A stretch of DNA of 35,298 bases from an uncultured bacterium (GTDB lineage: Bacteria; Margulisbacteria; WOR-1; JAKLHX01), in assembly GCA_964633925.1 (NCBI GenBank), contig CAZWKB010000004.1:49741-85038 (forward strand), in the 5' to 3' direction. The notes under the pieces are model-generated. The model did no database searches. It was not told the DNA's origin and saw only the letters and a program-made list of their open reading frames with translations. Numbering within the stretch: position 1 is the first letter of the stretch; the number at the start of each line of letters is the position of its first letter. This document shows positions 2 through 33,840 of the stretch, in pieces. The translations under genes and the position numbers were made by a program.

Positions 2-1978
2 GATGGCAAACTCATAGCCATAACAGAAAGATTTTCAGGTTGGATAGATGAAGATAAACAATATTATAAAGATGTTATTTCAAGGAATGAAAAAAAGAAT
101 AAAATATCAAAGTTCAATAAAGCATACGTCTATAGCTTTATTGTTCCCGTCAATGATGAGAATGGCAAAGTTCTTGGTATGGTAGAAATGATATATGATA
201 CATCCTATTTTTTTGCAAGATCCATGGACACCTGGAGAAGCATAATAATCACTCTGGCAGTTCTGATAGTTTCTCTCTTAATGATAGCTTTTTTGTTTTT
301 AAGACAGATGTTTATGTTGCCGATGGAAAAACTTACGATATGGTTTAAAAATTTTCAAAAAGGCGACCTCGATACTATGCATGGGCTCAACCCAAAAGGG
401 ACTTTTGGTGATCTTGCCAGTGAAGTTGAGCAGGTCGCATTAAGCCTGAAAGTTGCAAGAAGATCCATTTCTGAAGAAGCCTCTACAAGATTGATTAAAG
501 ATGAAGTATGGACCGAATCTAAACTAAAAGATCTGGTACGTGCAAAGCTTGATAACAGTACAATGGTGGTCGTTTCGAACAGAGAACCATATATGCATGT
601 TATCGATGAGAAGACAGGATTGGCAAAATGCATAAGACCCGCAAGCGGAGTTGTAACGGCAATAGATCCGATAATGAGAGCTTGTGGAGGCACTTGGGTG
701 GCGCAAGGCAGCGGTAATGCAGACAGGCAATTCGTTAATTTAAAAGATAAATTGGGAGTTCCACCGGATGATGTTTCTTACATATTAAAGAGGATCTGGA
801 TTACTCCTGAAGAAGAAGAAGGTTTTTATTATGGTTTTTCAAATGAAGGGCTTTGGCCTTTATGTCATATTACTCATACCCGTCCGATATTCAGGGAAAC
901 TGACTGGCAGATGTATAAAGCCGTAAATCAAAAATATGCTGACAGTATTATTGAGGAATTACCAGCTAAGAATGCATTCGTATTTATTCAGGATTACCAT
1001 TTTACATTACTTGGCAAAATGATAAAAGAAAAAAGACCGGATGCGACTATCGCTCTTTTTTGGCATATCCCATGGCCTAATACGGAGGTGTTCTCAATTT
1101 GTCCGTATCAGCAGGAGATACTTGACGGTATGCTTGGATGCGATCTTATAGGATTTCATGTCCAATATCATTGCAATAATTTTCTTGACACAGCTAACCG
1201 CCTGCTTGAATGCAGGGTGGATAATGAGAAGAACAGTATCATAAGAAAAGGGAAAGAAACTTTAGTTCGACCTTTTCCAATCAGTATTGATGGGGCATTC
1301 GCTTCTTCCATTTCAGTTAATGAGGGAAAAGAGATACAAAGAATTAAACAAGAACTCGATCTTGAAGGGAAAATAGTTGCTGTTGGCGTAGATAGAATAG
1401 ATTATACAAAGGGTATTGCCGAAAGGATATTGGCTGTAGATAGATTCTTGGAAAAGAATCCGCAATATATTAACAAGTTTGTTTTTATGCAGCTTTCTGC
1501 CCCAAGCAGAACAAAAATTACCCGCTATCACGACCTTCAGGACGAAATAGACTTGCTTGTTGAAAAAAAGAACAGCAAATATGCCAATGGTTCCTGGAAA
1601 CCGATAATATACCTAAAGCGGTATTTCACTCCTGAAGAAATTCATCCGTATTACAGGATAGGAGATATTTGCATTGTAAGTTCTTTGCATGACGGGATGA
1701 ACCTTGTAGCAAAAGAATATGTTGCATCAAAGACTGATCTTTCAGGATCCTTGATACTAAGCAAATTTACCGGTGCGGCAAGAGAGCTTGTTGATGCCAT
1801 TCAGATCAATCCATATTCTATAGAGGAATTTGCAGATGCGATCAAACTGGCTTGTGAAATGACAGACGATGAAAAGAATAAACGTATGGAAAATATGCGC
1901 AGAATTACAACGGAAAATAATGTATATAAATGGGCTGCAAGTATAATCATGGAGCTAAAAAATTTACAAAAAACATAA
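2..1978 (+). CDS. otsA: Membrane sensor / HAMP-domain fusion to trehalose-6-phosphate synthase (GT20, OtsA-type); 5' end runs off the window
   Basis: The frame of ORF 179..1978 stays open back to nt 2 (DGKLIAITERFSGW...PVNDENGKVLGMVEM), so the gene is truncated by the window edge. It has one TM helix (WRSIIITLAVLIVSLLMIAFLFL) and a HAMP-like segment (LPMEKLTIWFKNFQKGDLD...GTFGDLASEVEQVALSL). GT20 motifs follow: VVVSNREPY, GFSNEGLWPLCH, IQDYHF, WHIPWP, GVDRIDYTKGI, LHDGMNLVAKEYV. Confidence 0.85.
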   Translation, partial: DGKLIAITERFSGWIDEDKQYYKDVISRNEKKNKISKFNKAYVYSFIVPVNDENGKVLGMVEMIYDTSYFFARSMDTWRSIIITLAVLIVSLLMIAFLFLRQMFMLPMEKLTIWFKNFQKGDLDTMHGLNPKGTFGDLASEVEQVALSLKVARRSISEEASTRLIKDEVWTESKLKDLVRAKLDNSTMVVVSNREPYMHVIDEKTGLAKCIRPASGVVTAIDPIMRACGGTWVAQGSGNADRQFVNLKDKLGVPPDDVSYILKRIWITPEEEEGFYYGFSNEGLWPLCHITHTRPIFRETDWQMYKAVNQKYADSIIEELPAKNAFVFIQDYHFTLLGKMIKEKRPDATIALFWHIPWPNTEVFSICPYQQEILDGMLGCDLIGFHVQYHCNNFLDTANRLLECRVDNEKNSIIRKGKETLVRPFPISIDGAFASSISVNEGKEIQRIKQELDLEGKIVAVGVDRIDYTKGIAERILAVDRFLEKNPQYINKFVFMQLSAPSRTKITRYHDLQDEIDLLVEKKNSKYANGSWKPIIYLKRYFTPEEIHPYYRIGDICIVSSLHDGMNLVAKEYVASKTDLSGSLILSKFTGAARELVDAIQINPYSIEEFADAIKLACEMTDDEKNKRMENMRRITTENNVYKWAASIIMELKNLQKT

Positions 1979-1979
1979 T

Positions 1980-2762
1980 ATGGCTGATATCTTTAAGCTG
2001 ATGAAAAACCATCATATATTATTATTTATGGATTATGACGGCACTCTTGTCCCAATATCCGACATTCCCGGAAAAGCCATGCTTTCAAATAAAATGAGAA
2101 GGATCTTAACGGATCTTACGGAATTTAGACATTTAAAGTTGGCTGTTATCAGTGGCAGGTCTTTGAGTGAATTAAAAAAAATAGTTGCCATCAATAACAT
2201 TATTTATTCCGGAAATCATGGATTTGAGATTAGTACAGATGATTATGTCTTTCAACAAACTATTTCTGACAGATCAAAAACCGCTATTCAAACTGTGTTA
2301 TTTGCATTAATTGCAGGATTGTCGGATTTGAAGGGGATCATTATTGAGGATAAAAACTTGTCTTTAAGCATTCATTACCGATTAGCGGGTAATAAGGAAG
2401 CTATAAAGGCAAAACAAATTGTAAAAAATATCGCTGACGATTATATCCGAAAAAAGCTGATAAGAATAACAGAAGGGAAAAAAGTCATTGAAATAAGACC
2501 TCAAAAAGATTGGAATAAAGGGAAAGCTGTCAGATGGATATTGAATGAACAGAAAGATCACAATAACAAAAATGTTTTGCCGGTATATATTGGTGACGAT
2601 CAAACAGATGAAGATGCTTTTAAAGCAATAAGAAAAAACGGATTAACGATATATGTTGGCAGAAATGCGAAAACAACTGCTCAATACAGATTAAATGATA
2701 CTAAAGAACTTCAGTGTTTTTTAGAAGATCTGCTAAAAATGAAAAGAGGCGAAGTCTTATGA
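1980..2762 (+). CDS. otsB: Trehalose-6-phosphate phosphatase (HAD superfamily, OtsB-type)
   Basis: HAD motif I is FMDYDGTLVP and the C-terminal motif is YIGDDQTDEDAF. The gene starts 2 nt after the otsA stop. Confidence 0.85.
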   Translation: MADIFKLMKNHHILLFMDYDGTLVPISDIPGKAMLSNKMRRILTDLTEFRHLKLAVISGRSLSELKKIVAINNIIYSGNHGFEISTDDYVFQQTISDRSKTAIQTVLFALIAGLSDLKGIIIEDKNLSLSIHYRLAGNKEAIKAKQIVKNIADDYIRKKLIRITEGKKVIEIRPQKDWNKGKAVRWILNEQKDHNNKNVLPVYIGDDQTDEDAFKAIRKNGLTIYVGRNAKTTAQYRLNDTKELQCFLEDLLKMKRGEVL

Positions 2763-3427
2763 ATGAACAATTAAAAGAGTATGAGCCGTTCCGTTTTTAT
2801 ACGAGGCTGCATTTGTCCGAGCTTACAGGATTACGGGCTCGGAACTTAAAACAACTGGCTGAGCTGATTAAAATGGTGTCCGGTTCTTGTATTTATTATC
2901 ATACTCATAAATACTTGCAGCAACATCAATATCTTTCTCCCGAACCTCCAAATGATTTTGCTTTTTGGGTCGCAAATGTCTGGGGAGATAATAAATTAGG
3001 CGAGAAACTGGCAAGCATAGACACTATCAGTTTTTCAACTATAAGGAGTCTCCGTGAAAAGATACTTGAGATTATTGAAAAACATATAGATGAAACTGTC
3101 CGAGCCAGAGAAGGATCAGTTAATGAAGGCGATGAGTTCCATTTCATCAAAGCGATAAGCTTTGTTCTTCCGACAAATTATATTGCAAGAGATTTAAATG
3201 AATTTGCAGATGCTTTAAATAAAATTACAATTGACTCTATATATTTTCATATTTTCGAATCAAGGCTGAGAAACAAAAAAGGCAAAAATGATTTTTCGTT
3301 ATGGATAGAAAAGTCTTTTGGGGATATCGAAACCGCAAGGAGAATAGAAAAGCTTGATCCCTATACCTATACTCTTGAGGATCTAAGGAACAAACTGGTT
3401 TTGTTGATAAAAAAAGGAATAATTTAA
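2759..3427 (+). CDS. Conserved hypothetical protein made of two tandem copies of a ~95-aa domain; function unknown
   Basis: ATG 2759 overlaps the otsB stop (ATGA) and follows an AGAGG SD, so it is preferred over the upstream start at 2714. The internal repeat is visible by eye: FRFYTRL..LTGLRARNLKQLAELI..SCIYYHTH..NDFAFWV compared with FHFIKAI..NYIARDLNEFADAL..DSIYFHIF..NDFSLWI. Confidence 0.6.
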   Translation: MNEQLKEYEPFRFYTRLHLSELTGLRARNLKQLAELIKMVSGSCIYYHTHKYLQQHQYLSPEPPNDFAFWVANVWGDNKLGEKLASIDTISFSTIRSLREKILEIIEKHIDETVRAREGSVNEGDEFHFIKAISFVLPTNYIARDLNEFADALNKITIDSIYFHIFESRLRNKKGKNDFSLWIEKSFGDIETARRIEKLDPYTYTLEDLRNKLVLLIKKGII

Positions 3428-3428
3428 A

Positions 3429-4640
3429 ATGACAGAAATAAACGATTATCTCCCGATCGTTGGTGAAGCTGTATTAGACGACCTAAGGTTACTGTCTCAA
3501 AATCTAAAAGGCAAAGTCATTCAAAATATAAATTCAACAAGGGTCGGCGGTGGCGTTGCCGAAATACTGAACAGAATGATCCCGCTATTTCGGGAGTTGG
3601 GAGTTGATGCACGATGGGATCTGATAAAAGGGGGAGAACAGTTTTTTGAAGTGACAAAAAAATTTCATAATGCGCTTCATGGCGTCAAGGAAAACCTAAC
3701 GAAAGAAGATTATGATATTTTTATTGAAACCGGAAAAAGCAATATCCAAGATATACATACTTATGGCGATGTCGTGTTTGTTCATGATCCACAACCGATA
3801 TATCTTGTGGAAAAGAGAACTGATAATAAATGGCTTTGGAGATGCCATGTAGATGTCTCAAAACCGGCACCTGATGTTTGGGATTTTTTAAGAAAATATA
3901 TTGATCAATACGATTCAGCCGTATTTTCGGCCCCTTCATTTTCTACTCCTCTTCCGATAAGACAATTCCTAATATCTCCTTCGATAGACCCTTTGAGCGA
4001 TAAGAACAAAGAGCTAAGTCAGAATGTAATAGATGATGTATTAAAAAAGCACAAAATTACGAGCGACAAACCTATAATACTTCAAATATCAAGATTTGAC
4101 AGATTAAAAGATCCTCTGGGGGTTATTGAAGCATATTTGCTGGTAAAAAAATATATAGACTGCCAGCTGATTCTGGCGGGAGGCACTGCAGCAGACGATC
4201 CCGAAGGTTTTCAGGTGCTTGAAGAAGTGAAGCAAAAAGCGGAAAAGGATACTGATATTCACATATTGCTATTACCTCAAAATGATATTGAAGTGAATGC
4301 ATTGCAAAGAGCCGCAACCGTTATCATGCAAAAATCACTTAAAGAAGGTTTTGGTCTTACAATATCAGAAGCACTGTGGAAATCAAAGCCGGTAGTAGCT
4401 TCAGCTATAGGCGGCATTCCGTTACAGATTAAGCACAAATATTCCGGGCTTCTTTGCAATTCAATAGAAGGAGCTGCATTTATGCTTAAACAATTACTGA
4501 ATAGTCCAAAGTTTGCAAACAAACTGGGAGAGAACGGGAAAGAGCATGTTAGGAATAATTTTTTAATAACACGACACATTAAGGAATACATGCTCCTGTT
4601 TCTTTCTCTTTATAATACTGATGACATAAATTATTTGTGA
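3429..4640 (+). CDS. treT: TreT-type trehalose glycosyltransferring synthase (GT4)
   Basis: There are long collinear matches to the Pyrococcus/Thermococcus TreT sequence as I remember it. These include NST.VGGGVAEIL, ARW.LIKG...FF.VTK.FHNALHG, VHDPQP, WLWRCH.D.S.P, SPSIDPLS.KN.EL, ISRFD..K, DDPEG, EVNA.QRA..V..QKS..EGFGLT.SEA.WK.KPV and NFLIT.H. Confidence 0.75.
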   Translation: MTEINDYLPIVGEAVLDDLRLLSQNLKGKVIQNINSTRVGGGVAEILNRMIPLFRELGVDARWDLIKGGEQFFEVTKKFHNALHGVKENLTKEDYDIFIETGKSNIQDIHTYGDVVFVHDPQPIYLVEKRTDNKWLWRCHVDVSKPAPDVWDFLRKYIDQYDSAVFSAPSFSTPLPIRQFLISPSIDPLSDKNKELSQNVIDDVLKKHKITSDKPIILQISRFDRLKDPLGVIEAYLLVKKYIDCQLILAGGTAADDPEGFQVLEEVKQKAEKDTDIHILLLPQNDIEVNALQRAATVIMQKSLKEGFGLTISEALWKSKPVVASAIGGIPLQIKHKYSGLLCNSIEGAAFMLKQLLNSPKFANKLGENGKEHVRNNFLITRHIKEYMLLFLSLYNTDDINYL

Positions 4641-4693: not shown

Positions 4694-4719
4694 ATATGTC
4701 AAAGAGGGTAGTGAACAAT

Positions 4720-5964
4720 ATGACTATATTCTTACAAGCTTTTGTGCTTGCGTTTTTTTTATTAGGCAGTTCTGTCGCCTATGCAGCTGTCACAATAGAT
4801 TATTGCATTGATAGTGCGGTTTTAAATGACCAGAGGATACTTGCTATACAAAAGAACATGCAAGCTGCACAGTTCAAACAAAAAGAAAAGCAATATGCAT
4901 ATTTGCCTTCACTTGGTTTGACATCCGGATATATCAGATCTGCGCAGGCAACTTCATCCCGCGGCATAGATGATTATTCTCTATCTCTCATTTTAAGGCA
5001 AAATTTATATAGCGGGGGGAGACTCGACGGCGAAAAGCAGATAGCAGATATTGAATTAAAAAAAGCAGAATCACTTTACAACAAAACAAGGAAAGACATA
5101 GTTCTGGATGTGCAAAAAGCATATTATAGTGCAAGATATGCACAGGATGTCCTTGAGGCAAAACAAAACATAAGAGATAATCTTAAGGCATATTATGAAA
5201 GAGCAAAAAAACTGAATGCCATGACAAATCTTCCAAGGCTAGAAGACCTTTTGCAGATAGAAGTGCAGCTTGGCAATATGCAGATAGAAACAGCAGTTGC
5301 AAAGACAGATCTCCAGAGATCAAAAGCAGTGCTTGCAGATCTTACGTATACGGATATTAAAGACGAATATTTATCTTCTTCTCTGCCAAGAAAAGAGATC
5401 CCGGAAATAAACGAAAGCAATGTGCCCAAAGACAATTATGAATTTATTAACTCCATTTATGACGAGCAAATAGCTGAGCAAAATCTGATCTATTCAAAAA
5501 GTGCTCTGTTGCCGTCAGTAAATATGTCGGCATATACCGGCTGGCAGGGGGCAACCTTGCCTTCGATGAACAATAATGCATACTTTGCAATAGCCTTTGA
5601 AATGACACTTTATGATTTTGGAAAATCTTATTCAAAGACAGAACAAAGCCGCAGTATTTATGAACAAAGGTCCCTCGAAAGAGAAATTAAAGCTGATAAG
5701 ATAGTTCTTGAGCTGTCCAATCTAAAAAGGGACTTAGCAACATATCTGCAAAATCTTGACATAGCGAAGCAGAATATGAAGAATGCGCAAAAAAGTCTGA
5801 AGATATATGAGGACAGATCTCTAAGTTTTACAACGAACAGCAGGCAATTGCTAGATGCTCAACAGTCATATCTCCAGTCGCAGATGAATTATCTTGGAAT
5901 ACTGCGCAACTATAACATCACCTTGATAGAAATATGCAGAATAATGGGTAAAGACTTAATATGA
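4720..5964 (+). CDS. TolC-family outer-membrane efflux protein
   Basis: Signal peptide MTIFLQAFVLAFFLLGSSVAYA, followed by two coiled-coil/beta-barrel repeats typical of OEP/TolC proteins. An alternative start is 4696. The stop overlaps the RND start (ATGA). Confidence 0.8.
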   Translation: MTIFLQAFVLAFFLLGSSVAYAAVTIDYCIDSAVLNDQRILAIQKNMQAAQFKQKEKQYAYLPSLGLTSGYIRSAQATSSRGIDDYSLSLILRQNLYSGGRLDGEKQIADIELKKAESLYNKTRKDIVLDVQKAYYSARYAQDVLEAKQNIRDNLKAYYERAKKLNAMTNLPRLEDLLQIEVQLGNMQIETAVAKTDLQRSKAVLADLTYTDIKDEYLSSSLPRKEIPEINESNVPKDNYEFINSIYDEQIAEQNLIYSKSALLPSVNMSAYTGWQGATLPSMNNNAYFAIAFEMTLYDFGKSYSKTEQSRSIYEQRSLEREIKADKIVLELSNLKRDLATYLQNLDIAKQNMKNAQKSLKIYEDRSLSFTTNSRQLLDAQQSYLQSQMNYLGILRNYNITLIEICRIMGKDLI

Positions 5965-8900
5965 GATTAAGCTCAATAGCAATAAAAAGAATAGTAGGAA
6001 CTCTTGTAATAACGACATTATTGAGTGGCATGGGCATTTATTTCCTTTTCGCACTATCGGTAGATCTTCTGCCAAAAATAACGTATCCGATAATTCGTAT
6101 CAGAATTGCCTATCCGGGAGCATCGCCGGAAGAGATAGAGACAAACGTAACAAGACGTGTCGAGTCTTCGATAGCGGCCGCAGAAGATGCTGTCAAAGTT
6201 GTCTCAACTGTGACCGAAGGTTCATCCCGCACAGATGTGTTCTTTGATTACGGCAAAGACATGGAAGCAGCCCTGAATGATGTCCGTGCAAGGATGGACA
6301 GGATACGGGATCTTCCTGATGAAATAGAAAGCCCCGTAGTATTTAAGGCCGATCCGACACAGCTTCCGATATTTGACATTGCCATGTTCTCAGACATTAG
6401 AGACGATATAGAACTAACAAGATGGGCCGACAAAGAATTGATAGAGCTTTTTACAGGCATAGAGGGGCTTGCTTCTGTCACGGTAAGCGGGGGAAAGAAC
6501 AGGGAGGTACGTGTAGTATTTGACCCTGCAAAGCTTAATCAATACGAATTATCGGAATCAAAAATAATATCAAGGCTTGCTCAAGAGAATATTGATACAC
6601 CGGGCGGCTATATAACACAAGGCAACAGGGAATTAACAGTTCGCCTTGCCTCAAAATTCAGGGATCTAACGGACATAGAAAAGGTGATAGTAGAGAACAG
6701 GGAGGGGCAGGCAATAAAACTCGGTGATGTCGCCAAAGTGATAGACTCACATGCCGATCAGAGAGTAATGATGAGAGTGAATCAAAAACCGTCTGTTGTG
6801 ATAAGTTTTTTAAAACAGCCCAATGCAAACACTGTTGCCGTTTGTGATGCAATACAAAAAAAGATAGCCGAGCTTAAAACAAAAGGGTTGATTGCAGAAG
6901 ATATTAAAACAGCTGTGATCAATGATCAGTCCTATTACATTAACAATTCCATAAAGAGCGTCAGCGAAGCATTGCTATATGGTGCCGGTCTTGCCACAAT
7001 AGTGGTATTTCTTTTTTTAGGAAGTATAATACGCACAATTATCGTAGCAATTGCGGTGCCTGTATCTCTTATGGTGACTTTTTTGTTCATGTATCTCCTT
7101 GGCATGAACATCAATATGATCAGTCTTGGAGGTTTGATGCTCGGAGTCGGGATGCTTCTCGATAATTCCATTGTAGTGCTCGAAAATATTACAAGGTATC
7201 AAAAGATCACAACCGACAGGCATAAGGCGGCGGAAGATGCCAGCAGCGAGATCGGATCGGCAGTTATTGCTTCAACTCTCACAAATCTTGCTTCCGTCGC
7301 TCCTTTCTTTTTAATAGGCGGCGCAGCTGTTCTTTTGTTCAGGGATATCATAATTACAATATCGATCGCTGTTATAGCTTCATTGCTAACGGCACTTACT
7401 GTGGTCCCTGCATTAGCTGCCAGGCTGACAAAGTATTCCGGAAAAAGAGAAAAGATGGGAGACAGGATCAACAACAAAGCTGCGGATATGTATTCTGCCA
7501 TGCTAAAAAAAGTCTTAAAGTTCAGATGGTTTGTTGTGTCTTTGTTGGTCATATCTTCTATAGTTTGCTATTATTCTATAAATCCACAGACAGGAGAGTT
7601 TTTGCCGCAAACAGATGACGGCAAGGCCACCATTTCTGTCAAATTGCCGGATGCAACCGCAATACATATTACCGATGCACTTGCAGAAAAGATCGAAAAA
7701 GCTCTTATTGAGAAATATAAAGATATTGATGTTCTATATTCTTCTGTAGGTGGATTCTGGTTTGCCGGAGGGGTCAGTTCATATTCAAATCAAATAAGAT
7801 TCAATATTCAGCTTGTTGACAAAAATATCAGAAAGAAGCCCACTGCTGATTTTGTTAAAAGTTTAAAGCCGTTTTTGACAAAGATGATGCCAAAGGATGC
7901 AGAGCTAAAAATAACACGGCCGAGGATACGTGGCATGCGAATAGGTTCTGCTGATGAATCTTTTGAAATAAAAATATTCGGACCTGAAATTTCAAAACTG
8001 CAACAATACTCTGATGATATGATCAGCAGGCTTTCAAGTGTCGAAGGTCTTGTGAATCTTGACACTTCGCTTAATCTTTCACGCCCTGAAATTCACATAA
8101 CATTTGACAGAAAAAGATTAAGCGATTACGGGCTTAGTGCGGCAAGTGTCGGAGAAACCGTCAAAGCAAATCTGACAGGTGTTGTTGCAACAAGATTTAC
8201 AGATCCAAAATATGAAGAGGATTTTGATATCCGTGTGATATATCAGAGAGAAATGTTTTCTGACATAAAAAAGATGAGATCCATGCTTATTCCGACAAAT
8301 TCAGGTATGTCTGTTACTCTAGGAGATATTGCCTCCATCACCAGTGCCTTTGGCCCAGCAGAAATCGAAAGAGAGAACAGATCAAGGCTTGTCAGGGTCT
8401 TGGGAGATGCTCAGGGGGTGTCTGTGGGGCAGGTAACAGAAAGTGCAAAAAAAATATTGCAAAATTTCAAACTCGATGAGCAATACAGATTCGAGATCGC
8501 AGGCGAGGCAGAGAGCATCGCCGAAAGCAACCGTACACTTATGATAGCGGCTTTGATGGCTTTGTTTCTTGTCTTTGGTATTATGGCGGTGCAGTTCGAG
8601 TCGCTTAAAGATCCTCTTGTCATAATGTTTACAGTTCCGTTTGCAGTGATAGGGGCTGTTTTGGCACTGGCGATGACAGGGACTGCGTTCAGTGCTGTAG
8701 TATTTCTTGGCATAATTTTGCTTATAGGGATTGCAGTCAACAACGGTATTGTTATGGTAAATTATTTCGGGGTCTTGCGCAGTGAATATGGAAAAACAAT
8801 ATATGAAGCGGTTATGGAAGGAGCCCCCACAAGGCTAAGACCTGTTCTTATGACAAGCATAACAACTATCGCCGGCATGATACCTATCAGTCTTGGCTTT

Positions 8901-9035
8901 GGAGAAGGATCAGAAATGCTTGCTCCTCTCGGGATCACGGTTATAGGAGGGCTTATGATGGCAACTGTGCTAACGCTTTTCGTAGTCCCTTCGATCTATA
9001 TGATATTTAATAACAGTAATAGAGATAGGGCATAA
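5961..9035 (+). CDS. RND efflux permease (AcrB/HAE-type, 12 TM, 1024 aa)
   Basis: AcrB-like N-terminus ([23 protein letters not shown]), two large periplasmic loops and duplicated TM bundles ([14 protein letters not shown]; [13 protein letters not shown]; RLRPVLMTS). Confidence 0.9.
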
Positions 9036-9039
9036 GAAC

Positions 9040-10059
9040 ATGGTTAAAACAAAAATAATCTGTACTTTAGGACCCGCATCATCAAGTCCGGCTGTTTTGA
9101 GAAATATGATCCTGTCAGGAATGGACATTGTTCGTTTGAATTTTTCTCATGGCAGCCACAAGGACAAGATACAAATTATAAAGCTTGTCAGGCAGTTGAA
9201 CAAAAAGATGGGCAGGCACATAAAAATACTCGGAGATCTTCAGGGGCACAGAGTGAGGGTAGGAAGTCTTGCTTCTCCAATTGAACTGAAAAAGAAACAA
9301 ATAGTCTGGCTGACAAAAAAAAGAACAGGCAATGATCCGGCAAGTATTCCCTTTGATTTTAAAGGTCCGCTGAAAAGTATAAAAAAAGGACATCAGATAT
9401 TCATAGATGACGGCAATATATGCCTTGAGGTAATAGGCAGGACTTTGGATGGGATAAAAACCGCAGTAATAGTCGGCGGTCTTCTTAAATCAAATAAAGG
9501 GATAAATATTCCGGATGCAAAACTTGAATTTGGATGCATCAGCGCCAAGGACACCGATGATATTGAGTTTTGCAAAAAGAATAAAGTAGATTATATAGCA
9601 CAATCATTTGTCAGAACAAAAGATGACATCCTCGAAGTGCGAAGCATCCTTGGCACAAAAACGAATTGCAAAGTGATAGCAAAAATTGAGAATGCGGATG
9701 GCATAAAGAATATAGACGGGATAATAAAAACATCTGACGGCATAATGATAGCAAGAGGCGATATGGGTGTTTCTTTACCGGTCTATAAAGTCCCTGTGAT
9801 ACAGAAGATGATAATCAATAAATGCAATGATGCCGCAAAGATCGTAATAACTGCAACACAGATGCTCGAGAGCATGACAGAGAACAAACGCCCCACACGG
9901 GCAGAAGTGTCTGATGTGGCCAATGCCGTCATAGACGGCACTGATTTCGTAATGCTTTCAGGAGAAACAGCGATCGGCAAATATCCTGCAGAGTCTGTCG
10001 ACATAATGAACAAGACTATTCAGTATACCGAAAGATATCTGTCTACTTCAGTTTTTTAG
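9040..10059 (+). CDS. pyk: Pyruvate kinase, short form (A and B domains only; C-terminal domain absent)
   Basis: Motifs present: [73 protein letters not shown]. The protein ends about 10 residues after the A domain. Confidence 0.8.
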
Positions 10060-12767
10060 CGAGCTTTCCTTATCATCTTCTCTATCTCCACAACTGTATA
10101 TACTATTAACCCGCCTATAATTATTTTTCCCCAGGCTTCCAACGAGAGAGGTGCAGTGCCAAATAATGTGTTCATAATAGGGGAATATGTAAACAACATT
10201 TGAACACTTATCATAAGCAGCACACCGGCAAGCACAATTTTGTTAGAGAAAAAGCCAATTTTGAAAGGAGATTTATCAAATGATCTGCAGTTAAATAGAT
10301 AGAACAGTTCACCAAAAACAAGCATATTCGACGCAAGAGTTTGTGCAATAATTACATCGCCGCTAGAAAGCTTTTCCTGCCTGAACAGGAAAAGAATAAT
10401 TGCTATTAATAAGGCACTAACATACAGGGTTCGCTGCGTCAGTATTGTATCGAATATTGGCATTTTAGGGTCATTTGGCTTGCGAAGCATTATACCGTCT
10501 TCTTTTGGCTCAAATGCAAGAGTCATGCCAAGCAATAAGGCAGTCATCATGTTTATCCATAATATCTGAAGAGGAGATATTGGAAGAGCAAAATTAAAAA
10601 TTATTGCGATAACCAGGATCATTCCCTCTGTAAGATTTGTCGGAATGGTCCATACTATGAATTTGCGCAGATTATCAAATACTCCACGTCCTTCTTCAAC
10701 AGCGGCTTGTATTGTTGCAAAGTTATCATCAGTAAGTACAAGATCAGCGGCTTCCTTTGCAACTTCCGTACCGTCTCTGCCCATGGCAACCCCGATATTT
10801 GCTTGTTTGAGAGCAGGCGCATCATTTACACCATCTCCTGTCATAGCCGCTATATGGCCCTGTTCCTGAAGCGATTTAATTATTTTGAGCTTCTGTTCAG
10901 GTGTCACTCGTGCAAACACAGTGGTCTTAAGCGTATTGGCTAAATAATCTTCGTCCGTCCATGATTCCATCTGTGATCCAGTAACAGCGATCAGCTCGAG
11001 CTTGTCGTCTGTCAAAGATGCCTTAATGCCCATTTTTTGAGCAATAGCCTTTGCAGTAGAAGCATGGTCTCCTGTTATCATCTTGACCAACACTCCCGCT
11101 CCGTGGCATGACCTTATGGCTCTTATGGCTTCTTCTCTTGGAGGGTCCATCATAGCCTGAAATCCTAAGAATACAAGATTCTGATCAACATCTTTATGCT
11201 CTATCACCGAATGAGCAGCAGGCATATCTTTTTTTGCAAAAGCTATAACTCTAAGTCCTAATGCTGCCGATCTTTCAGCTATTTTTGTTATCTCTTCCTT
11301 ATTTATTGCTTTTACTATGCCGTCATTCCCCATAAAATGAGAGCATCTTTTCAATATGGATTCCGTAGATCCTTTTATATATATAACATTTGCCGATTTG
11401 TTCATATCTTTGTGAAGTGTAGCCATATATTGTTTTTCAGATTCAAAAGGAAGGCCGTCAATTCTAGGATAAAGCTTCTCAAGATCATTTATGCGTATTT
11501 TTGCCTTCTCGCCGCTCACAATAAGGGCTCCTTCAGTAGGATCTCCCTCAACATAATAGGTACCGTCTTTTTCCGCGATCTTAGAATCATTGCAGAGCAA
11601 ACCTCCTGACAAGATCTCATTCAGTGGAGCGTTAGCTCTGAAATCTGCAGTTTTTTTTGTCAACTCATCAATTATCTCGCCCGAACGGCTGAATCCTTGT
11701 CCTGTTACGCTATAAAAAGCATTCCCGGCAAAAAGGGTTTGTACTGTCATTTTGTTCTCAGTAAGAGTCCCCGTCTTATCAGAGCATATAATAGTAGTAC
11801 TTCCTAGTGTTTCAACAGCAGGCAGTTTTCGTATTATGGCTTTTCTCTTTGCCATGCGCGCAACACCTATAGAAAGTATTATCGTTATGGCTGCAGGCAG
11901 ACCTTCCGGTATGGCTCCAACAGCGATGGCAACAGCGGCCATGAAAGCATCAAGTGGCGGATTTTTGTAAATGACAGTAGAAACAAAAAAAGTGACGGCG
12001 GTAAAGAACATAATAATATAGAGAAGTAAATTGCTGAAATGAGCAAGTTTTTGAGTAAGAGGGGTCTCTATATTATCCGCATTTTCCACAAGTTGAGATA
12101 TTTTTCCGATCTCTGTTTTGTCTCCTGTTGCGATCACTATCCCTCTGCCTATACCGTTCGTAATAAGGGTTGAGGCATACAGCATGTTCTTTCGATCTGC
12201 AAGAGGGGTGTTCTCAGCAAGCTCGGCTATACTTTTTTCTACGGGCAAAGATTCTCCCGTAAGAGCTGATTCATTAGACTTCAACTCCTTTGTTTGGAAA
12301 AGGCGAATATCTGCGCTTACTTTGTCTCCTGATTCAAAAATTACAATGTCACCAGGCACAAGATCTTCAGAGGAGATCTTTTTTTCTCCACCGTTTCTTA
12401 AGACTTTTGCTCTGGTTATCATGGTTTTCGCAAGAGCAGCAAGAGAATCAACCGCTTTAGCTTCCTGAATATAACCCACTATTGCATTTACGATAACAAC
12501 TCCAAATATCACGGCAGAATCGATATATTCATGAAGGATAAATGTAATCACGGCAGCAGCAAGCAGTGCATAAATAAGAGGTTGGTGAAATTGCAGCAAA
12601 AAACGCATCAAAGGGCTTATTGTTTTCTTTTTTGTTAAAATATTTAGTCCGTATTTTTCTTTTCTTTCATCTACTTCTTTTTCATTCAGCCCTTTTTCAA
12701 GGTTTGCAGAAATATTCTCTGCTATTTTTGTAGCTTTCAGAGCGTGCCAATTTTTGATTGTTTCCAT
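10056..12767 (-). CDS. P-type cation-transporting ATPase, type IIA (SERCA/Ca2+-ATPase-like)
   Basis: Motifs present: [57 protein letters not shown]. It has about 10 TM segments. Confidence 0.9.
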
Positions 12768-17826: not shown

Positions 17827-17985
17827 ATGCACAAAATAGATTTCAACGGAAAAGTTGTATCTTACAAATCAGGAGACGGAATAAATATTCCTGCAGGTGA
17901 GGAACACAAACACAAAGCAAGAATACTGACTGATCATGCTGCTGTGTTTTTAGTAGAAGATACTAACATTACTCTTCCTCTTTGA
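17827..17985 (+). pseudogene. Possible cupin-domain C-terminal remnant (52 codons)
   Basis: FNGKVVSYKSGDGINIPAGEEHKHKA...AAVFLVED resembles the second half of a cupin barrel, and the first half is missing. It overlaps the 3' end of the convergent sigma-factor gene by 52 nt. Confidence 0.3.
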
Positions 17986-18464
17986 ATTCTTGCTTTTGCA
18001 TTTTCTAAACTTATATTAAACATCTCAGCTATTTCTTTTGCAGAAAACCCTTCAATATCGCTAAGTATCACAGCCGCTCTATAAATGGGCGGTATTTTCA
18101 TTAAATATTCTTGAAGCACGGCATCATTCTCAATTTTCTCAATATTTTTATCGTGCAATCCCTTTTCGTGATTATCTGATAATGGCTCATCGAGTTCCGA
18201 TTTTTGTCTTTTTAACATACGGCAATTATTTGTTGCAATTTGAAACAGCCATGTTGAAAATTTAGAATCTCCACGAAAACCGCTAATGTTTTTATACACA
18301 TTAAGCATTGTTTCTTGAAGCATATCTTCGGCAGTTGTTGGATTGTTGCACATTCTTGTAAGAAAATTCTGCAGTTTAGGTTTATAGGGGATAAGCATCT
18401 TTTCAAACGCGTTTTTGTCCCCAGACTGTGTCGCCTTTATTAATTCTGATTCGTCCATATTCAT
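17934..18464 (-). CDS. ECF-type (sigma-70 family group 4) RNA polymerase sigma factor
   Basis: Region 2 is AEDMLQETMLNVYKNISGFRGDSKFSTWLFQIATNNC. Region 4 is YRAAVILSDIEGFSAKEIAEMFNISLENAKARIQRGR. Confidence 0.85.
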   Translation of the reverse strand: MNMDESELIKATQSGDKNAFEKMLIPYKPKLQNFLTRMCNNPTTAEDMLQETMLNVYKNISGFRGDSKFSTWLFQIATNNCRMLKRQKSELDEPLSDNHEKGLHDKNIEKIENDAVLQEYLMKIPPIYRAAVILSDIEGFSAKEIAEMFNISLENAKARIQRGRVMLVSSTKNTAA

Positions 18465-18509
18465 ATCATATCATTGTATCTTTTCGTCTATTTGCCGCAT
18501 CACATAGAT

Positions 18510-18533
18510 GTAGCCCCACGCCATGGCGTGGGG
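18510..18533 (+). repeat. REP-like GTAG-headed hairpin, family 3 (copy H)
   Basis: GTAG followed by the perfect 20-nt palindrome CCCCACGCCATGGCGTGGGG. Confidence 0.85.
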
Positions 18534-18560
18534 AATCAATATCAAAGGAGGATCACGATC

Positions 18561-18914
18561 ATGGAACATCTAACATTGGAATCATTTAAGGAAAAGGTTT
18601 TTGATTTTGAAAAGAATAAGGAATGGACATTTGAAGGAGACAAACCGGCAATAATTGATTTTTATGCTGATTGGTGCGGTCCATGCAAAATGGTTGCTCC
18701 TGTTCTCGATCAGCTTTCAAAAGAGTTTGAAGGGAAGGTTGATATTTACAAAGTTAATACCGAAGACCAACAGGAGTTAGCAGGTATGTTTGGAATAATG
18801 AGCATTCCTTCAATATTATTCATCCCTATGAATGAAAAACCGCAAATGACGCAGGGCGCATTACCAAAACAGGCATTTGTCGACGCAATAAAAGACGTTT
18901 TGAAAATAATATAA
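18561..18914 (+). CDS. trxA: Thioredoxin
   Basis: ATG 18561 follows AAAGGAGG, and the active site is WCGPC. The longer track ORF (18474) reads through the repeat and is rejected. Confidence 0.85.
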   Translation: MEHLTLESFKEKVFDFEKNKEWTFEGDKPAIIDFYADWCGPCKMVAPVLDQLSKEFEGKVDIYKVNTEDQQELAGMFGIMSIPSILFIPMNEKPQMTQGALPKQAFVDAIKDVLKII

Positions 18915-20441: not shown

Positions 20442-20455
20442 TTGGGTCTTTTGGG
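20442..20455 (+). promoter_or_regulatory. TTGGGTCTTTTGGG motif, copy 1 (5' leader of the regulator gene)
   Basis: An exact 14-mer that is repeated at 21197-21210. It is internally a direct repeat, TTGGG-N4-TTGGG. Confidence 0.3.
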
Positions 20456-20468
20456 GAAGCCCCTAATT

Positions 20469-21173
20469 ATGGAAATTACACAAAGACAAAAAGAATTTTT
20501 AGATAAGTTATTAGATCTGTATAATATGGCAGGGCAACCTGTTCATTACACCACTATCGCGGAAAAACTCGGAATAAGTAAATGGTCGGCTTACGACATG
20601 ATGAAGCTTCTTGAAAAAAAAGGGCTCGCAAAAACTGAATATAATGTACCTGAATTGGGGCGTGGAGGTGGCAGGTCATCAGTAGTTTTTTCCCCCACGC
20701 AAAAGAGCGAAGAAATGATGACCCGTCTTGCTGAAGGGGATCCCGATGCTACTCAGTGGGCTCTGGTGAAAGAGAAGATCCTGACCAATATATCAAAACT
20801 GGAAGGGACCGAGTACGAAAAACTGTTAAATGAAATTACAGAGCAAAATCTATATCAAAAGGATGCTCTTTTATATTGCACAAATATGACAACAGCTTTG
20901 CTTTTGGTAATAAGAGGATTCAGAGATAAGCTAAAGGGAGGAATTCCTGTAAGAGAAATTCTTGAAGAGACTCCAAAGGTAAATGTGAAATTACTTAAGC
21001 TGATGGGACTTACAATAGGGCTTTCTCTAACAGGATTGAAAGCAAAATCAAGATTAGTAAAATTACTTGGCCAGTCAAAAAAATATGAATCAATGGTTCA
21101 AGACATGGACGCAAAGAGGTTGAAAATGCTCTCAGAATTCCTTGACGAAGCTGCAAAAAAACTGCTGGATTAA
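20469..21173 (+). CDS. Putative winged-helix transcriptional regulator with a helical C-terminal domain
   Basis: HYTTIAEKLGISKWSAYDMMKLLEKKGLA is a MarR/DtxR-like wHTH. ATG 20469 is preferred over TTG 20442. Confidence 0.6.
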   Translation: MEITQRQKEFLDKLLDLYNMAGQPVHYTTIAEKLGISKWSAYDMMKLLEKKGLAKTEYNVPELGRGGGRSSVVFSPTQKSEEMMTRLAEGDPDATQWALVKEKILTNISKLEGTEYEKLLNEITEQNLYQKDALLYCTNMTTALLLVIRGFRDKLKGGIPVREILEETPKVNVKLLKLMGLTIGLSLTGLKAKSRLVKLLGQSKKYESMVQDMDAKRLKMLSEFLDEAAKKLLD

Positions 21174-21275: not shown

Positions 21276-22772
21276 ATGATGAATAGAAAAATAGCCGTAT
21301 GTCTTTTTTTGGGATTGTTGTTTGTCGTTCCTGTTCAGGCTCAAAATGTGAAGGAAATTTCCCTTGAGACAGCATTGCATAAAATAATTGAAAACAATCT
21401 TACTGCGGGCATTTTAAAATATGAAGTGAAGCAGGCAGATTCCGATTATGAGAGGTCTCAGACAAAATATTCTCCTTTTATCAATGCTTCCGCTTCCCAT
21501 CAGTATAGTGACATGGACCTTTCGGGTATGTCTCCTGCGCTTGATGCTATGTATGGGGCAAAATATTCTGCTAATGAAGCTGCTATAAATATTGGACAGA
21601 CATTCAAAACCGGAACCTCCGTGGTTGGCGGGTACAAATATTCTAATATGGATTTTTCAAAAGCTCCTGCAGCAATGACAGGTTATCCAACTACCTGGAA
21701 TAATCCAACGGCATTTATTCAAGTCAAACAGGCTTTGTTAAAAAACGGTTTTGGATATTCGGAGGCAATGCAGGAAGAGCTGTTAAAGAATCAGAGAGAC
21801 AGCAAACAAATAGCTTCTAAGTATCAATTATCAGGACTGATGGTTTCCGGAATATTCGACTATTTCACGGTTACAGAAAAACAAAGAAAACTATTTGCAG
21901 CCCAGAGTGAACTTTCCTCATACAAAAAAATCTATGATGCTGTGAAAGACAACGTGTCTTTCGGACTTTATGAAAAATATAATTTATATCAGTTCAATGC
22001 TCTAATATCAGGTTCGCAAGCAAAACTGGCCGGAGCTGAATTGAATTATAAAAAAGCGACTCACAAATTACTTTGTGATCTCAATATGCCGGAAAGTAAG
22101 GAAGATTCTATATCTCTCGTAAGCGTTGATGAGTCTCTTCATAAATATGATGTTGTATCTCTTTATGAAACAGCACTTAAAAAAAGAGCGGATATATTGC
22201 AGGCAAAACTAGCTCTCGACAGTGCCGAAAAACAGGTAAAAATGATTGACAATCAGGCCCTTCCTGATGCCCAACTGGAGCTGCAGGGAGTTGACGAAAG
22301 ACTAAATGCTGCAAGCACGGGTTCAAACGCTCTAAAATATCTTAATTGGAGTGCCAAGGTCTCGGTAACAAAATTATTATCGGATACTGATAGTTCCATT
22401 AAACAGCGCAATGCAAAATATCAGCTTGAGCAGGCAAAGTTGCAATATCAAAATCTGAAAAATCAGATAAAATATGAAGTTGCTGATGGTGTTGAAACTA
22501 TACAAACGGCATATATCGGAGTAGAAAAAACAAAAGAGATGGTAAGAGACAGTGACTTATATTTAAATGCATTGCAAAAACGTTTAAGACAGGGCAAGCT
22601 TAGCACTGTCGAACTAAAAAACGCTGTTGATATGACCGTAGCTGCTAATAATGCCTACTCAGAGGCAGTAACGGGATATAACATGGCACAACTTAACCTT
22701 GATCTTGTAACTAATACAATATTTGAAAAATACCATCTTGATATAAATAAAGCAGTAGGAGGGATAAAATAA
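21276..22772 (+). CDS. TolC-family outer-membrane efflux protein (second copy)
   Basis: SD AAAGGAG, signal peptide MMNRKIAVCLFLGLLFVVPVQA, and OEP-type duplicated repeats. Confidence 0.8.
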   Translation: MMNRKIAVCLFLGLLFVVPVQAQNVKEISLETALHKIIENNLTAGILKYEVKQADSDYERSQTKYSPFINASASHQYSDMDLSGMSPALDAMYGAKYSANEAAINIGQTFKTGTSVVGGYKYSNMDFSKAPAAMTGYPTTWNNPTAFIQVKQALLKNGFGYSEAMQEELLKNQRDSKQIASKYQLSGLMVSGIFDYFTVTEKQRKLFAAQSELSSYKKIYDAVKDNVSFGLYEKYNLYQFNALISGSQAKLAGAELNYKKATHKLLCDLNMPESKEDSISLVSVDESLHKYDVVSLYETALKKRADILQAKLALDSAEKQVKMIDNQALPDAQLELQGVDERLNAASTGSNALKYLNWSAKVSVTKLLSDTDSSIKQRNAKYQLEQAKLQYQNLKNQIKYEVADGVETIQTAYIGVEKTKEMVRDSDLYLNALQKRLRQGKLSTVELKNAVDMTVAANNAYSEAVTGYNMAQLNLDLVTNTIFEKYHLDINKAVGGIK

Positions 22773-25700
22773 TGAAAACTATAATAGATTTTCTTATTAA
22801 ACAAAAGATGACGGTTTTCTTGTTTGTGATAGCGATCCTTGTTGCCGGATACTTTGCAATTACTTCTATTAATAAAGAATCGTTTCCGGAAGTTTGCCTG
22901 GACATGGTCGTTGTTCAGACAATATATCCAGGAGCCTCACCTGATGAGCTGGAAAATCTTGTCTCGATCCCTATAGAGAAAAAACTCAGAGAGATAAGCG
23001 GCATAAGCAAAGTTGTTGATTTTAATATTGATAATTGTTCTGTGGTTCTCGTGTCTCTTGATGAAGGCTTATCGACAGGTAAACGTTCCAAGATCGTTGA
23101 TGATATTAAGAGCTCCGTAAATGATATAAAAGATTTTCCTTCCACTGTAAAAAAACCGGAAGTGACCGAGATCACTACGGAAAAAACTCAAGTATTGGAT
23201 ATTGCTTTAGTTTCAAACAAACAGGGAGATTCCGCCTATGCGGAGCTGCTTTCAACAGCAAAGAACTTGCGTGAAAAACTATTATTTGTAGATGGTGTGG
23301 CAGAGGTGAAAAAGAATGGATACAATGATCGTCAATATTTGGTAGAAGTAAACCCTGCATCTCTGCGGGATTTTCGTATCGGACTCAATCTGGTACTCTA
23401 CAAACTGGCAACAAGAAATATCAATCTTCCCGGTGGGGTGCTTCGTGTAGGGGATAATGAGTTCGTGCTTCGTACTACCGGAGAGTTTAAAGGTATAGAT
23501 GATATCAGGAATATGGTTATTTTCTCAAACGATGCCGGTTATGTAACAAGATTAAGGGATATTGCCAAAGTTACTGATACTTTCAAAGAAACAGAAATTA
23601 TTCATAGGTTCAACGGTACAGATGCTATAGTTCTTTCCGTAAATAAAAAGCAGATTGCAGACACCATAAAAACGGCGGATAAAATAAAGGGTCTTATGGA
23701 GATTGAAAACAAAAATCTTCCCAATGGGATATCGGCTTATGAATTTAATGATATGAGCCGTTTTGTAAAAGTGCGTTTGTCTGCGTTGATCATAAACTCG
23801 TTGATTGGTTTTGCTCTTTTACTCATAATTTTGGTGTTGATGCTCGGCTATCGCATGTCTGCAATTGTCAGTGTCAGTATTCCTGTAACATTCATGATCT
23901 CTTTTATTTGCATGAAAGCACTTGGGATTACTCTGAATATTGTAAGTATGTTCGCTCTTGTAATGGTTCTCGGCATGGTTGTCGATTTTTCAGTCATAGT
24001 TTGTGAAAACACTTATCGTCACATGGAAAAAGGGCTGAAACGTCGTGATGCTGTTGAAAAAGGTCTAATAGAAATCCTTCCTGCAATGACAACGACAATG
24101 ATTTGTATTGTAGTTGCATTCGCTCCGTTATTATTTGTTACAGGGCTTGTAGGCAAGTTCATTTATGCAATTCCGGCAGTTATTATTATCTGTCTAATTG
24201 CTTCTTTTCTTTGTGCTGTTCTGGTCATTCCTGCAATACTTGACTCTTTTGCAAAGCTGAATAAGAAACATATTGCAGAGTTAAAAAAACAAAAAACATC
24301 GGGTCCGAGTCTTTACCGAAGGCTACTGTCCTTCATTGTAAAACGTCGCTACTGGGCTGTTGCCACTCTGTTGCTTGTTTCTTTTATCGTTATGTTTGCT
24401 GCTGTCCATTATTCAAGTTTTGTTTTTATGAATGGGGCATCAGAGTTAATTGTGATCAAAACAAAAATGCCAAAAAGTACAAGTCTTGAGGCAAATAAAA
24501 GAGCCATCCTTCCGATCGAAAAGATCGTTAAGGATATATATCCAAAATCGATAGTTGAAAATTATTATACATTTATAGGGATTCAGGAAGGGGGCAAGAC
24601 AGACAAGATTCTTGATATGTCTCCAAAGGATGGGACATCCAAGGGTTCTATTCATCTCAATCTTTGTCCGGAGGATGAACGCTCGATAAAGGGAGAAGAA
24701 ATCCTTGAGACGGTACGCAAGAAAATTGATGAAGCTCAAAAACGCGGAAAAATCGATTCTCGCATGGAGATCAAATATGGAATAAGCAGGGTAGGTTTGC
24801 CTGTAGGAACTGCTGTCAATGTTGAAATTAGAGGAAACGATTATGATGTCATGAAAAAGATGGCCGATGAATACAAAGAATATTTGTCTTCAATAAAAGG
24901 GATAGAAGATATTTATGATGATCTGGAGCAGGGAAAAGAGGAATATCATTATACTATCAATGAAGAAAAGGCAAGCCGTGCCGGATTGTCTATGCAGGAA
25001 GCTTCTCAGGCTCTCTACGCTTCATTCAAAGGTGTTGCTGCAACAACACTAAATCAGGGCGATGAAAAAGTTGAAGTTCTTGTGCGTTTTCCGGATTGGG
25101 CGCGCCGTCAGTCAAGCAGCCTAAATGATGTTATGGTCTCAAATGCTTATGGCGCAGTGATCCCGTTGAGCGAGATCACTTCATATACAAAGCAGACAGG
25201 GGTTTCGATGATAAGCCGCAAAAATTATATGCGCATTGTTCAGGTCAAAGCTAATGTAGACGGTAAGAATCTCACTTCTATGACGGCAAATGGCATGCTA
25301 AAAAAACACTTCAAAGATATTGAATCTCGATATCCGGGTTATGTTGTAAATTATGCCGGAGAGCAGGAAGATTCAGAAAAGAGCTTAAAGAGTTTGGGCG
25401 TTTTATTCATATTTGCAATTGTCCTGATATACATGATAATTGCAGCTTTCTTCAATTCTTTATCTCTGCCGATCGTAGTAATGATTTGTATCCCGTTTTC
25501 TCTTGTTGGTATTTGTCTGGCTCTTTTTATGCATGGGAATCAACCCCTGACATTTATGTCAATACTTGGTTTCTTCAGTCTTGCCAGTATTATTGTCAGC
25601 AATACATTGGTGCTGGTGCAGTTTATTATTAATGCCCGCGAGCATGGAATGACTGTGACCGAAGCAGTTGTAGAGGGAAGTGCCGCTCGTATACGTCCGA

Positions 25701-33704: not shown

Positions 33705-33708
33705 TATT

Positions 33709-33734
33709 GTAGGGGCGGACCTTTAAGGCCGCCC
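33709..33734 (+). repeat. REP-like GTAG-headed hairpin, family 1 (copy C)
   Basis: GTAG followed by GGGCGG(A)CC-tttaa-GGCCGCCC. Confidence 0.75.
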
Positions 33735-33794
33735 TCTCTGTATCCATGAATGAAATTCCCTGAAATTCTATCAACATTCTGTCGATAAGTTATT

Positions 33795-33819
33795 GTAGGG
33801 GCAGGCCTAGTGCCAGCCC
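33795..33819 (+). repeat. REP-like GTAG-headed hairpin, family 1 variant (copy D)
   Basis: GTAG followed by GGGCAGGC-ctagt-GCCAGCCC, with one A/A mismatch. Confidence 0.7.
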
Positions 33820-33840
33820 AAATACATAAGGGAAATAACA

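Follow-up and report, generated by a model that had tools for sequence, protein, structure and literature searches.

A trehalose-6-phosphate synthase fused to a membrane sensor and HAMP domain in uncultured bacteria

Control of osmolyte synthesis in bacteria is usually attributed either to transcription or to ionic effects exerted directly on soluble enzymes. GgpS of Synechocystis, an osmolyte synthase of glycosyltransferase family 20 (GT20), is switched post-translationally by salt; it is soluble, binds nucleic acid in an ionic strength-dependent manner and carries no fused receptor. In the HAMP-linked receptor enzymes, including the Rv3645-type adenylyl cyclases, HAMP-GGDEF/EAL proteins and HAMP-PP2C phosphatases, a sensor and a HAMP domain control an enzyme on the same polypeptide chain; what these enzymes produce or break down are signalling molecules or phosphoproteins, and in most of them the active site is built only in the dimer. 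In the case of the msc-gt-tpsp operon of Thermoproteus tenax, the trehalose synthase is activated when a family-4 glycosyltransferase forms a complex with it, and release of trehalose on downshock has been proposed as the role of the channel encoded alongside (PMC3634074). Here we analyse a 35,298-nucleotide stretch of DNA from an uncultured bacterium (contig CAZWKB010000004.1, positions 49,741 to 85,038; hereafter the window), whose first open reading frame (ORF) encodes a trehalose-6-phosphate synthase (OtsA) joined on one polypeptide to an extracytoplasmic sensor, a transmembrane (TM) helix and a HAMP domain.

The protein combines features of these systems and differs from each of them. Like the soluble OtsA enzymes of Mycolicibacterium thermoresistibile (5JIJ) and Escherichia coli (1GZ5/1UQU), it possesses a complete GT-B fold GT20 domain with its substrate-binding and catalytic residues and is followed by otsB, but approximately 270 extra N-terminal residues anchor it in the membrane as an integral protein and give it a periplasmic domain. 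Over its whole length this input module is homologous to that of uncharacterised WalK-type (single Cache-TM-HAMP) histidine kinases (P0212, P0249, P0261 and P0291), with the HAMP domain at the same residue numbers, whereas the output is GT20 rather than a dimerisation and histidine phosphotransfer domain plus catalytic ATPase; HisKA and HATPase_c are absent and no partner response regulator is needed. In contrast to the HAMP-linked receptor enzymes, the enzyme that forms its output serves biosynthesis in central sugar metabolism and has its active site within a single subunit. The analyses below establish an overall architecture that runs from a cytoplasmic N-terminus through TM1, a periplasmic single Cache (PDC) sensor of ~140 residues, TM2, HAMP and a linker of fixed length to the cytoplasmic GT20 domain. 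An initial annotation of the sequence had proposed a receptor-type synthase of this kind, and every architectural element it named was tested and found, at coordinates within a few codons of those reported here. We consider it reasonably likely that the protein is a dimeric receptor-enzyme in which the sensor would control trehalose-6-phosphate synthesis post-translationally, probably with a role within osmoadaptation.

The reading frame is a single stop-free run of 658 codons on the plus strand (nt 2-1978), ending with TAA at nt 1976-1978 and cut at its 5' end by the window edge. Thousands of database proteins match its product. The best 120 are 66-80% identical across the whole query, nearly all of them are ~744 aa long, and they align to the window protein from residue ~87, leaving ~86 extra residues at their N-termini. 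Full-length homologues begin with MKK or MKR, followed by ~22 hydrophobic residues (TM1, aa 4-22), ~140 residues and TM2. The ATG at nt 179, which is the first in frame and the start given in the ORF listing, was rejected as the true start because the homologues share, at the protein level, the sequence encoded by the 59 codons preceding it, placing initiation upstream of the window. Judged from these alignments, the window opens ~86 codons inside a receptor-type otsA gene, which agrees with the proposal that the sensor segment continues beyond the 5' edge. An exact 49-nt pattern from the window start found no match in genome or metagenome contig collections, two aquatic-metagenome runs containing the window sequence yielded only short, low-depth contigs of which none reached upstream, and no database record was found for the exact product of the downstream otsB gene.

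The enzymatic half of the protein comprises the GT20 trehalose-6-phosphate synthase domain (aa 188-653), a C-terminal tail and the stop codon (nt 563-1978, plus strand). Pfam Glyco_transf_20 (PF00982) matches aa 188-653 (nt 563-1960) with 400.5 bits and E = 1.3e-119, covering profile positions 3-472 of 473, while the first 187 residues of the window protein gave no significant Pfam match. The Pfam start at nt 563 coincides with the position of about nt 560 that had been assigned to the catalytic domain. Structures of OtsA enzymes in the PDB matched the domain with E-values from 5e-83 (5JIJ, the best) to 2e-46. The E. coli OtsA sequence, verified against PDB 2WTX, was aligned pairwise to the window protein, and thirteen positions that bind substrate or act in catalysis in OtsA structures were compared. 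All thirteen (R9, G22, Y76, W85, D130, H154, R262, K267, R300, F339, D361, L365 and E369 in E. coli numbering) are identical in the window protein, and the least conserved among them, F339, is retained in 49 of the 59 family members. With a full-length profile match and all of these residues kept, the output domain is complete, and from its intact residues it is predicted to be catalytically competent. The scores lie under the cut-offs of the NCBI OtsA equivalogs (TIGR02400, 414 bits versus 565; PRK14501, 477 versus 634), indicating a divergent subfamily.

Upstream of the enzyme, the window contains the C-terminal part of the periplasmic single-Cache/PDC sensor (aa 1-67, nt 2-202, plus strand) and the second TM helix (aa 68-99, nt 203-298, plus strand); the window edge cuts off ~86 residues, which correspond to TM1 and the N-terminal half of the sensor. 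The core of TM2 (aa 81-99, nt 242-298), with R79 and R101 on either side, is the sole strongly hydrophobic segment of the window protein, with a Kyte-Doolittle 19-residue mean of 3.13, and a hydropathy scan equates it with TM2 at aa 167-185 of the full-length homologues. This is the one TM helix that had been placed at about nt 233-300, and full-length relatives have two. A cleaved signal peptide was rejected as an explanation of the segment, which is internal to the protein, and this potential objection to the initial annotation thereby falls away. An AlphaFold2 model of the window protein (mean predicted local distance difference test score (pLDDT) 84.1) placed sensor strands at aa 32-38, 41-51 and 57-66, such that only the last three strands of the sensor (aa 32-66) lie inside the window. 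The segment NDENGKVLGMVEM (aa 51-63), which had been likened to the last strand of Cache/PAS-like sensor domains, spans the final hairpin of the modelled fold and leads into its last strand.

The whole sensor fold was examined in a homologue, P0125, whose first 258 residues were modelled with AlphaFold2 from a 64-sequence alignment (mean pLDDT 84.8). The model begins with a long helix (residues 2-59) extending from TM1 into the sensor, followed by another helix and by five strands among which two short helices are interspersed; after the sensor, a further helix spans TM2 and runs on into the cytoplasm. A long N-terminal helix and a five-stranded antiparallel sheet with flanking helices, held between two TM helices, constitute the PDC pattern. 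Foldseek comparison of this model with the PDB returned a full-length WalK model as the top match (E = 5e-11, 263 columns, TM-score 0.67 on the query), then the crystal structures of the WalK extracellular Cache domain (4YWZ/7DUD, TM-score 0.73-0.75 on the target), and then KinD, CitA and DcuS. The resemblance to the WalK single-Cache domain bears out the suggestion of an extracytoplasmic Cache-like domain. Sequence profiles pointed in the same direction at lower scores. The window fragment matched the Pfam Cache clan weakly (dCache_1, E = 0.028; also sCache_3_3), and dCache_1 was detected at E ≤ 0.1 in 38 of 59 family members. Residues 31-160 of the full-length homologues gave a cluster of mostly sub-threshold Cache-clan matches with no single model winning (the membrane-distal half of dCache_1, sCache_3_2, sCache_4, CHASE8 and dCache_3), and cut-offs were reached in P0044 (dCache_3, 28.2 versus 25.7), P0033 (CHASE8, 27.0 versus 27) and P0005 (sCache_4, 24.3 versus 22.1). 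A profile of the N-terminal module searched against PDB sequences gave non-significant matches only (the Af1503 HAMP domain at E = 0.12-0.13, WalK at E = 0.12 and a spurious CBS-domain match). Conserved polar and aromatic residues of the sensor include Q79, Y84, T94, R96, W100 and a DTSY motif (P0125 numbering). One relative of 913 aa (P0155) has an extracytoplasmic region of ~300 residues ahead of the same TM2-HAMP-GT20 arrangement, which suggests a doubled or exchanged sensor module.

The HAMP domain occupies aa 100-157 (nt 299-472, plus strand), with helix AS1 at about aa 100-119 including the invariant Pro107, a connector at aa 120-135 and helix AS2 from aa 136. In the model of the window protein, one continuous helix (aa 68-119) contains both TM2 and AS1 and is followed by a loop (aa 120-135) and a second helix (aa 136-163) formed by AS2 and its extension; in the homologue model the corresponding helices span residues 154-206 and 220-251 with a loop between them, and the connector measures 13-16 residues across both models, against the 12-16 that join the two amphipathic helices in HAMP domains generally. 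Two NCBIfam profiles matched the window protein here, WalK (aa 27-160 against model positions 125-257, E = 4e-5) and the Tar chemoreceptor (aa 82-151 against model positions 194-263, E = 3e-4), and the matched regions are the TM2-plus-HAMP parts of these proteins. Close homologues score 14.8-15.8 bits against Pfam HAMP (PF00672), whose gathering threshold is 25 bits. Across the GT20 family the Pfam model was found at E ≤ 0.1 in 24 of 59 members, and P0238 exceeds the threshold with 26.5 bits at aa 188-236, an equivalent position.

A profile of the N-terminal module was also run exhaustively against 1.84 billion representative proteins, and at a cut-off of E ≤ 1e-3 this returned 1,625 relatives, 301 of which also passed E ≤ 1e-10; the majority of the long relatives carry GT20. 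Histidine kinases were present among these relatives, and all eight that were examined have a Pfam HAMP domain. In the four kinases named above it lies at aa 185-237 (E = 1e-13 to 1e-15), the position that it has in the GT20 family; in the other four it follows directly after the last TM helix with shifted residue numbers (E = 2.6e-7 to 7.4e-15). Alignment of the N-terminal profile of the GT20 family (alignment A1) to that of the kinases (A4) with hhalign gave a match of 244 columns, free of gaps and covering the HAMP domain, with a probability of 99.9% and E = 2e-31. The HAMP signature, namely a proline early in AS1 (Pro107), a glycine where the connector begins (Gly121) and G-x-L-A with acidic residues as AS2 begins (G136-D-L-A-S-E-V-E-Q), is invariant in alignments A1 and A2. 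Pfam found no HisKA, HATPase_c or methyl-accepting chemotaxis protein signalling domain in the window protein or the 59 family members, and a word-indexed search with the N-terminal 254 aa of a homologue retrieved nothing but fragments from this family, with no further architecture among them. These results support the HAMP identity at the level of the family and not from the window sequence alone. The HAMP-like linker that the initial annotation had placed at about nt 300-470 thus stands when the family is considered, while the window sequence taken by itself lies under Pfam detection.

HAMP and enzyme are connected by a conserved linker (aa 158-187, nt 473-562, plus strand), delineated from the alignment and the AlphaFold2 model. 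In the model the AS2 helix continues to about aa 163, and Trp170-Thr171 (nt 509-514) and a short helix (aa 172-183) precede the first GT20 strand at aa 188. The distance from Trp-Thr to the NREP motif of GT20 is exactly 23 residues in all 190 sequences compared, including members that are only ~43-45% identical overall, and the distance from the AS1 proline to Trp-Thr is 63 residues in 154 of the 190. W170, T171 and L175 are invariant in alignment A3. An invariant length together with invariant aromatic residues fits a rigid mechanical connection, whereas a flexible tether would need neither.

A scan of species-representative genomes found at least 237 loci encoding a relative of the sensor-HAMP module, of which 80 were retained, and every one of the 80 carries the fusion. 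Sixty are labelled Omnitrophota or Omnitrophica; the other labels are Planctomycetes-type, Elusimicrobia, Spirochaetes, Nitrospirae, Phycisphaerae, Actinomycetota and unassigned, and more distant full-length members occur in Acidobacteriota (e.g. PYV27934.1, 761 aa). Sensor and GT20 domain lie in one ORF at 83 of 84 related loci, the sole exception being cut by a contig end. Separate genes for sensor and enzyme were rejected on this count, and the caveat that a stop or frameshift might divide the N-terminal part from the synthase does not overturn the fusion. Within the close subset of alignment A3 (66-80% identical, Omnitrophota-type), the sensor part averages 59% pairwise identity, TM2 52%, HAMP 67%, the linker 64% and GT20 77%; on this measure, the N-terminal half evolves faster than the enzyme yet is clearly maintained. 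The fusion is real and old. Two database entries, P0135 and P0136 (on contigs of 188 kb and 47 kb), show an out-of-frame end just past the Trp-Thr linker, at the HAMP-GT20 junction, and look like frameshifted fusion copies that are either pseudogenes or assembly errors.

The fusion gene heads a four-gene trehalose operon on the plus strand that consists of the receptor-type otsA, otsB, an OrfY-like DUF5752 gene and a TreT-like gene. The trehalose-6-phosphate phosphatase gene otsB (nt 1980-2762; Trehalose_PPase E = 5.6e-49, TIGR00685 175 bits versus a cut-off of 68) begins after a gap of 1 nt from the synthase stop codon. The DUF5752/OrfY-like gene follows (nt 2759-3427; Pfam DUF5752 E = 1.9e-69, PDB 4CSO E = 2.2e-26); its likely start is the ATG at nt 2759, which overlaps the otsB stop codon as ATGA, and its longest ORF runs from a GTG at nt 2714. 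After a further gap of 1 nt comes the gene for a TreT-like family-4 glycosyltransferase (nt 3429-4640), which matches TreT_GT1 (E = 2.2e-53), Glycos_transf_1 and NCBIfam TreT (373 bits, under the equivalog cut-off of 775). The order is widely kept: at the 64 related loci with enough flanking sequence, otsB is found downstream in 61, DUF5752 in 58, the TreT-like gene in 57 and the full trio in 57. An OrfY-TreT pair is thus joined with an OtsAB pair in a single operon. The depositors of 4CSO named it 'OrfY protein, transcription factor'; it probably comes from T. tenax, where orfY would be encoded with treT, although this link is less certain.

Genes for channels and transporters also occur near the fusion gene. 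An MscS-family channel gene directly adjoins it at 25 of 61 loci (for example at 6456-7508 in L002 and 5874-6923 in L003, with 23 other loci), lying upstream in 17 and between the synthase gene and otsB in 9. Genes for a CBS protein and a Na+/H+ exchanger lie between synthase and otsB in L002 and L011, an SNF transporter gene is near L003 and TrkAH near L004. The T. tenax operon is a close parallel: genes for a GT20 synthase, a family-4 glycosyltransferase and a mechanosensitive channel also stand together there, the synthase is controlled at the protein level, as is proposed here, and T. tenax also has TreT. It differs in that its synthase is fused to the phosphatase and activated by the glycosyltransferase complex, with neither a membrane sensor nor a HAMP domain.

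Several other features of the window were recorded. Two TolC-like plus AcrB-like gene pairs (nt 4696-9035 and 21276-25888, plus strand) have no adjoining membrane-fusion adaptor recognised by Pfam, and an ORF just upstream of the second pair (nt 20442-21173) has no Pfam match. A pyruvate kinase ORF of 339 aa (nt 9040-10059, plus strand) has a complete barrel domain (E = 1e-111) and no detected C-terminal domain. A P-type cation ATPase gene of the Ca2+/Na+ type lies on the minus strand (nt 10056-12767). An extracytoplasmic function sigma factor gene stands beside a divergently transcribed thioredoxin gene (nt 17934-18914). Two ATP-binding cassette permease genes and then two GH26-like genes, one with a CBM9 module, occupy nt 29282-34872 (plus strand) and may form a mannan-utilisation cluster; one of the permeases, of 601 aa, is extended at its N-terminus by ~400 residues, which show a faint beta-propeller match.

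The architecture suggests how a receptor-enzyme of this type might operate. Two chains would form a parallel dimer, as with every HAMP receptor, and a periplasmic or membrane cue tied to osmotic or envelope stress would alter the packing of the HAMP bundle. The rigid Trp-Thr linker would relay this to the Rossmann half at the N-terminus of the GT-B enzyme and so alter either the balance of the enzyme between open and closed states or the way in which the two catalytic domains are arranged. The rate of trehalose-6-phosphate synthesis would be set in this manner, and OtsB would then free trehalose from the product. Hyperosmotic or membrane stress would lead to more synthesis, and downshock to release via the channel. 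The frequent adjacency of MscS genes, together with ion and solute transporter genes near some of the loci, suggests a fast, transcription-independent arm of osmoadaptation.

A number of observations weigh against this interpretation. Coupling of HAMP to GT20 is its weakest step and its mechanism is conjecture. The GT20 active site is contained in one subunit, so HAMP cannot exert control in the way known from cyclases and kinases, where it completes an active site formed by the dimer. We know of no established small-molecule ligand for WalK-type Cache domains, and MscS adjacency is limited to 41% of loci. The window protein has no Pfam HAMP match at E ≤ 0.1; the initial annotation had named a lack of hidden Markov model support for HAMP as evidence against itself, and this is literally what the window protein shows, although the family-level profile evidence supports the domain. 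The monomer model is weakest over aa 111-170 (pLDDT 54-67), which is most of HAMP and the linker. Finally, the N-terminal 86 residues are deduced from homologues that are at most 80% identical rather than read from this contig.

The main rival explanation is a passive membrane anchor, according to which the N-terminal half is a kinase-derived relic that tethers and dimerises OtsA at the inner membrane, for instance beside a channel or transporters, without passing any signal, and synthase activity is constitutive or controlled by substrate. A self-contained active site would suit an enzyme that is simply held in place, no ligand-binding residues could be assigned in the sensor, the sensor is the fastest-evolving part of the protein, and adjacency to MscS could reflect co-localisation. 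However, a simple anchor needs neither a folded periplasmic domain of 140 residues nor a HAMP domain with an invariant signature (the proline, the glycine and the SEVEQ...AL motif) nor a linker of invariant length, and in relatives the same sensor-HAMP module drives histidine kinases. We therefore regard a mere tether as unlikely. An artefact, in which the N-terminal part belongs to a separate gene or the fusion arose by misassembly or as a pseudogene in this contig, is extremely improbable. The 5' end of the window gene was not recovered and the two frameshifted copies break at the very junction in question, but the frame runs for 658 codons without a stop, its upstream residues are conserved at the protein level, and the 83 intact loci are independent and come from many assemblies.

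The flow of information could instead be reversed, or the product could itself be a messenger. The GT20 domain might sense the sugar-nucleotide or sugar-phosphate state of the cell and signal outwards in the manner of LapD, or trehalose-6-phosphate might be a signal that DUF5752 reads and OtsB removes. For the former, the periplasmic part shows a weak likeness to the LapD/MoxY periplasmic domain (Pfam E = 0.04-0.16) and to PDB 4U64, a kinase/GGDEF/EAL periplasmic domain (E = 0.015), but all of the LapD similarity is sub-threshold. For the latter, HAMP-linked enzymes usually make second messengers, and DUF5752 matches a PDB entry that its depositors labelled a transcription factor. The retained catalytic residues and the 1-nt coupling to otsB fit bulk trehalose synthesis, and a second trehalose route (TreT) in the operon fits solute production. 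Such reverse or messenger schemes appear very improbable. The receptor-enzyme in which the sensor sets the rate of synthesis is the reading that we prefer.

Full-text literature searches found no paper describing a Cache- or HAMP-GT20 fusion, and a report on Antarctic Omnitrophota mentions only the presence of trehalose synthesis genes (PMC8542988). Database entries carry the name 'trehalose-6-phosphate synthase' or sometimes, in IMG, 'trehalose-6-phosphate synthase/HAMP domain-containing protein'. Each part is known and the proteins are abundant in databases, whereas the fusion itself is undescribed in the literature searched; what is new can be viewed equally well from either side, as a biosynthetic output not previously described for a HAMP receptor or as a regulatory module not previously described for an OtsA. 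A bolder version, to which we give little credence, is that trehalose-6-phosphate serves both as osmolyte precursor and as intracellular signal, its synthesis gated by the Cache domain, its level read by the OrfY-like DUF5752 protein and the signal ended by OtsB, which together with the channel would make a transcription-free osmostat. If that were true, HAMP control would extend to a GT-B glycosyltransferase whose active site is confined to a single subunit.

If the sensor does control the synthase, a biosynthetic glycosyltransferase would join the known HAMP outputs, and the structural question would arise of how a coiled-coil signal controls a GT-B enzyme whose active site lies in one subunit. 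The family could also supply parts for ligand-controlled sugar synthesis. Osmolyte control would then include a third route beside transcription and the ionic effects on soluble enzymes, namely a receptor wired directly to the committed enzyme of the trehalose pathway, and this route would be conserved across the uncultured phylum Omnitrophota.

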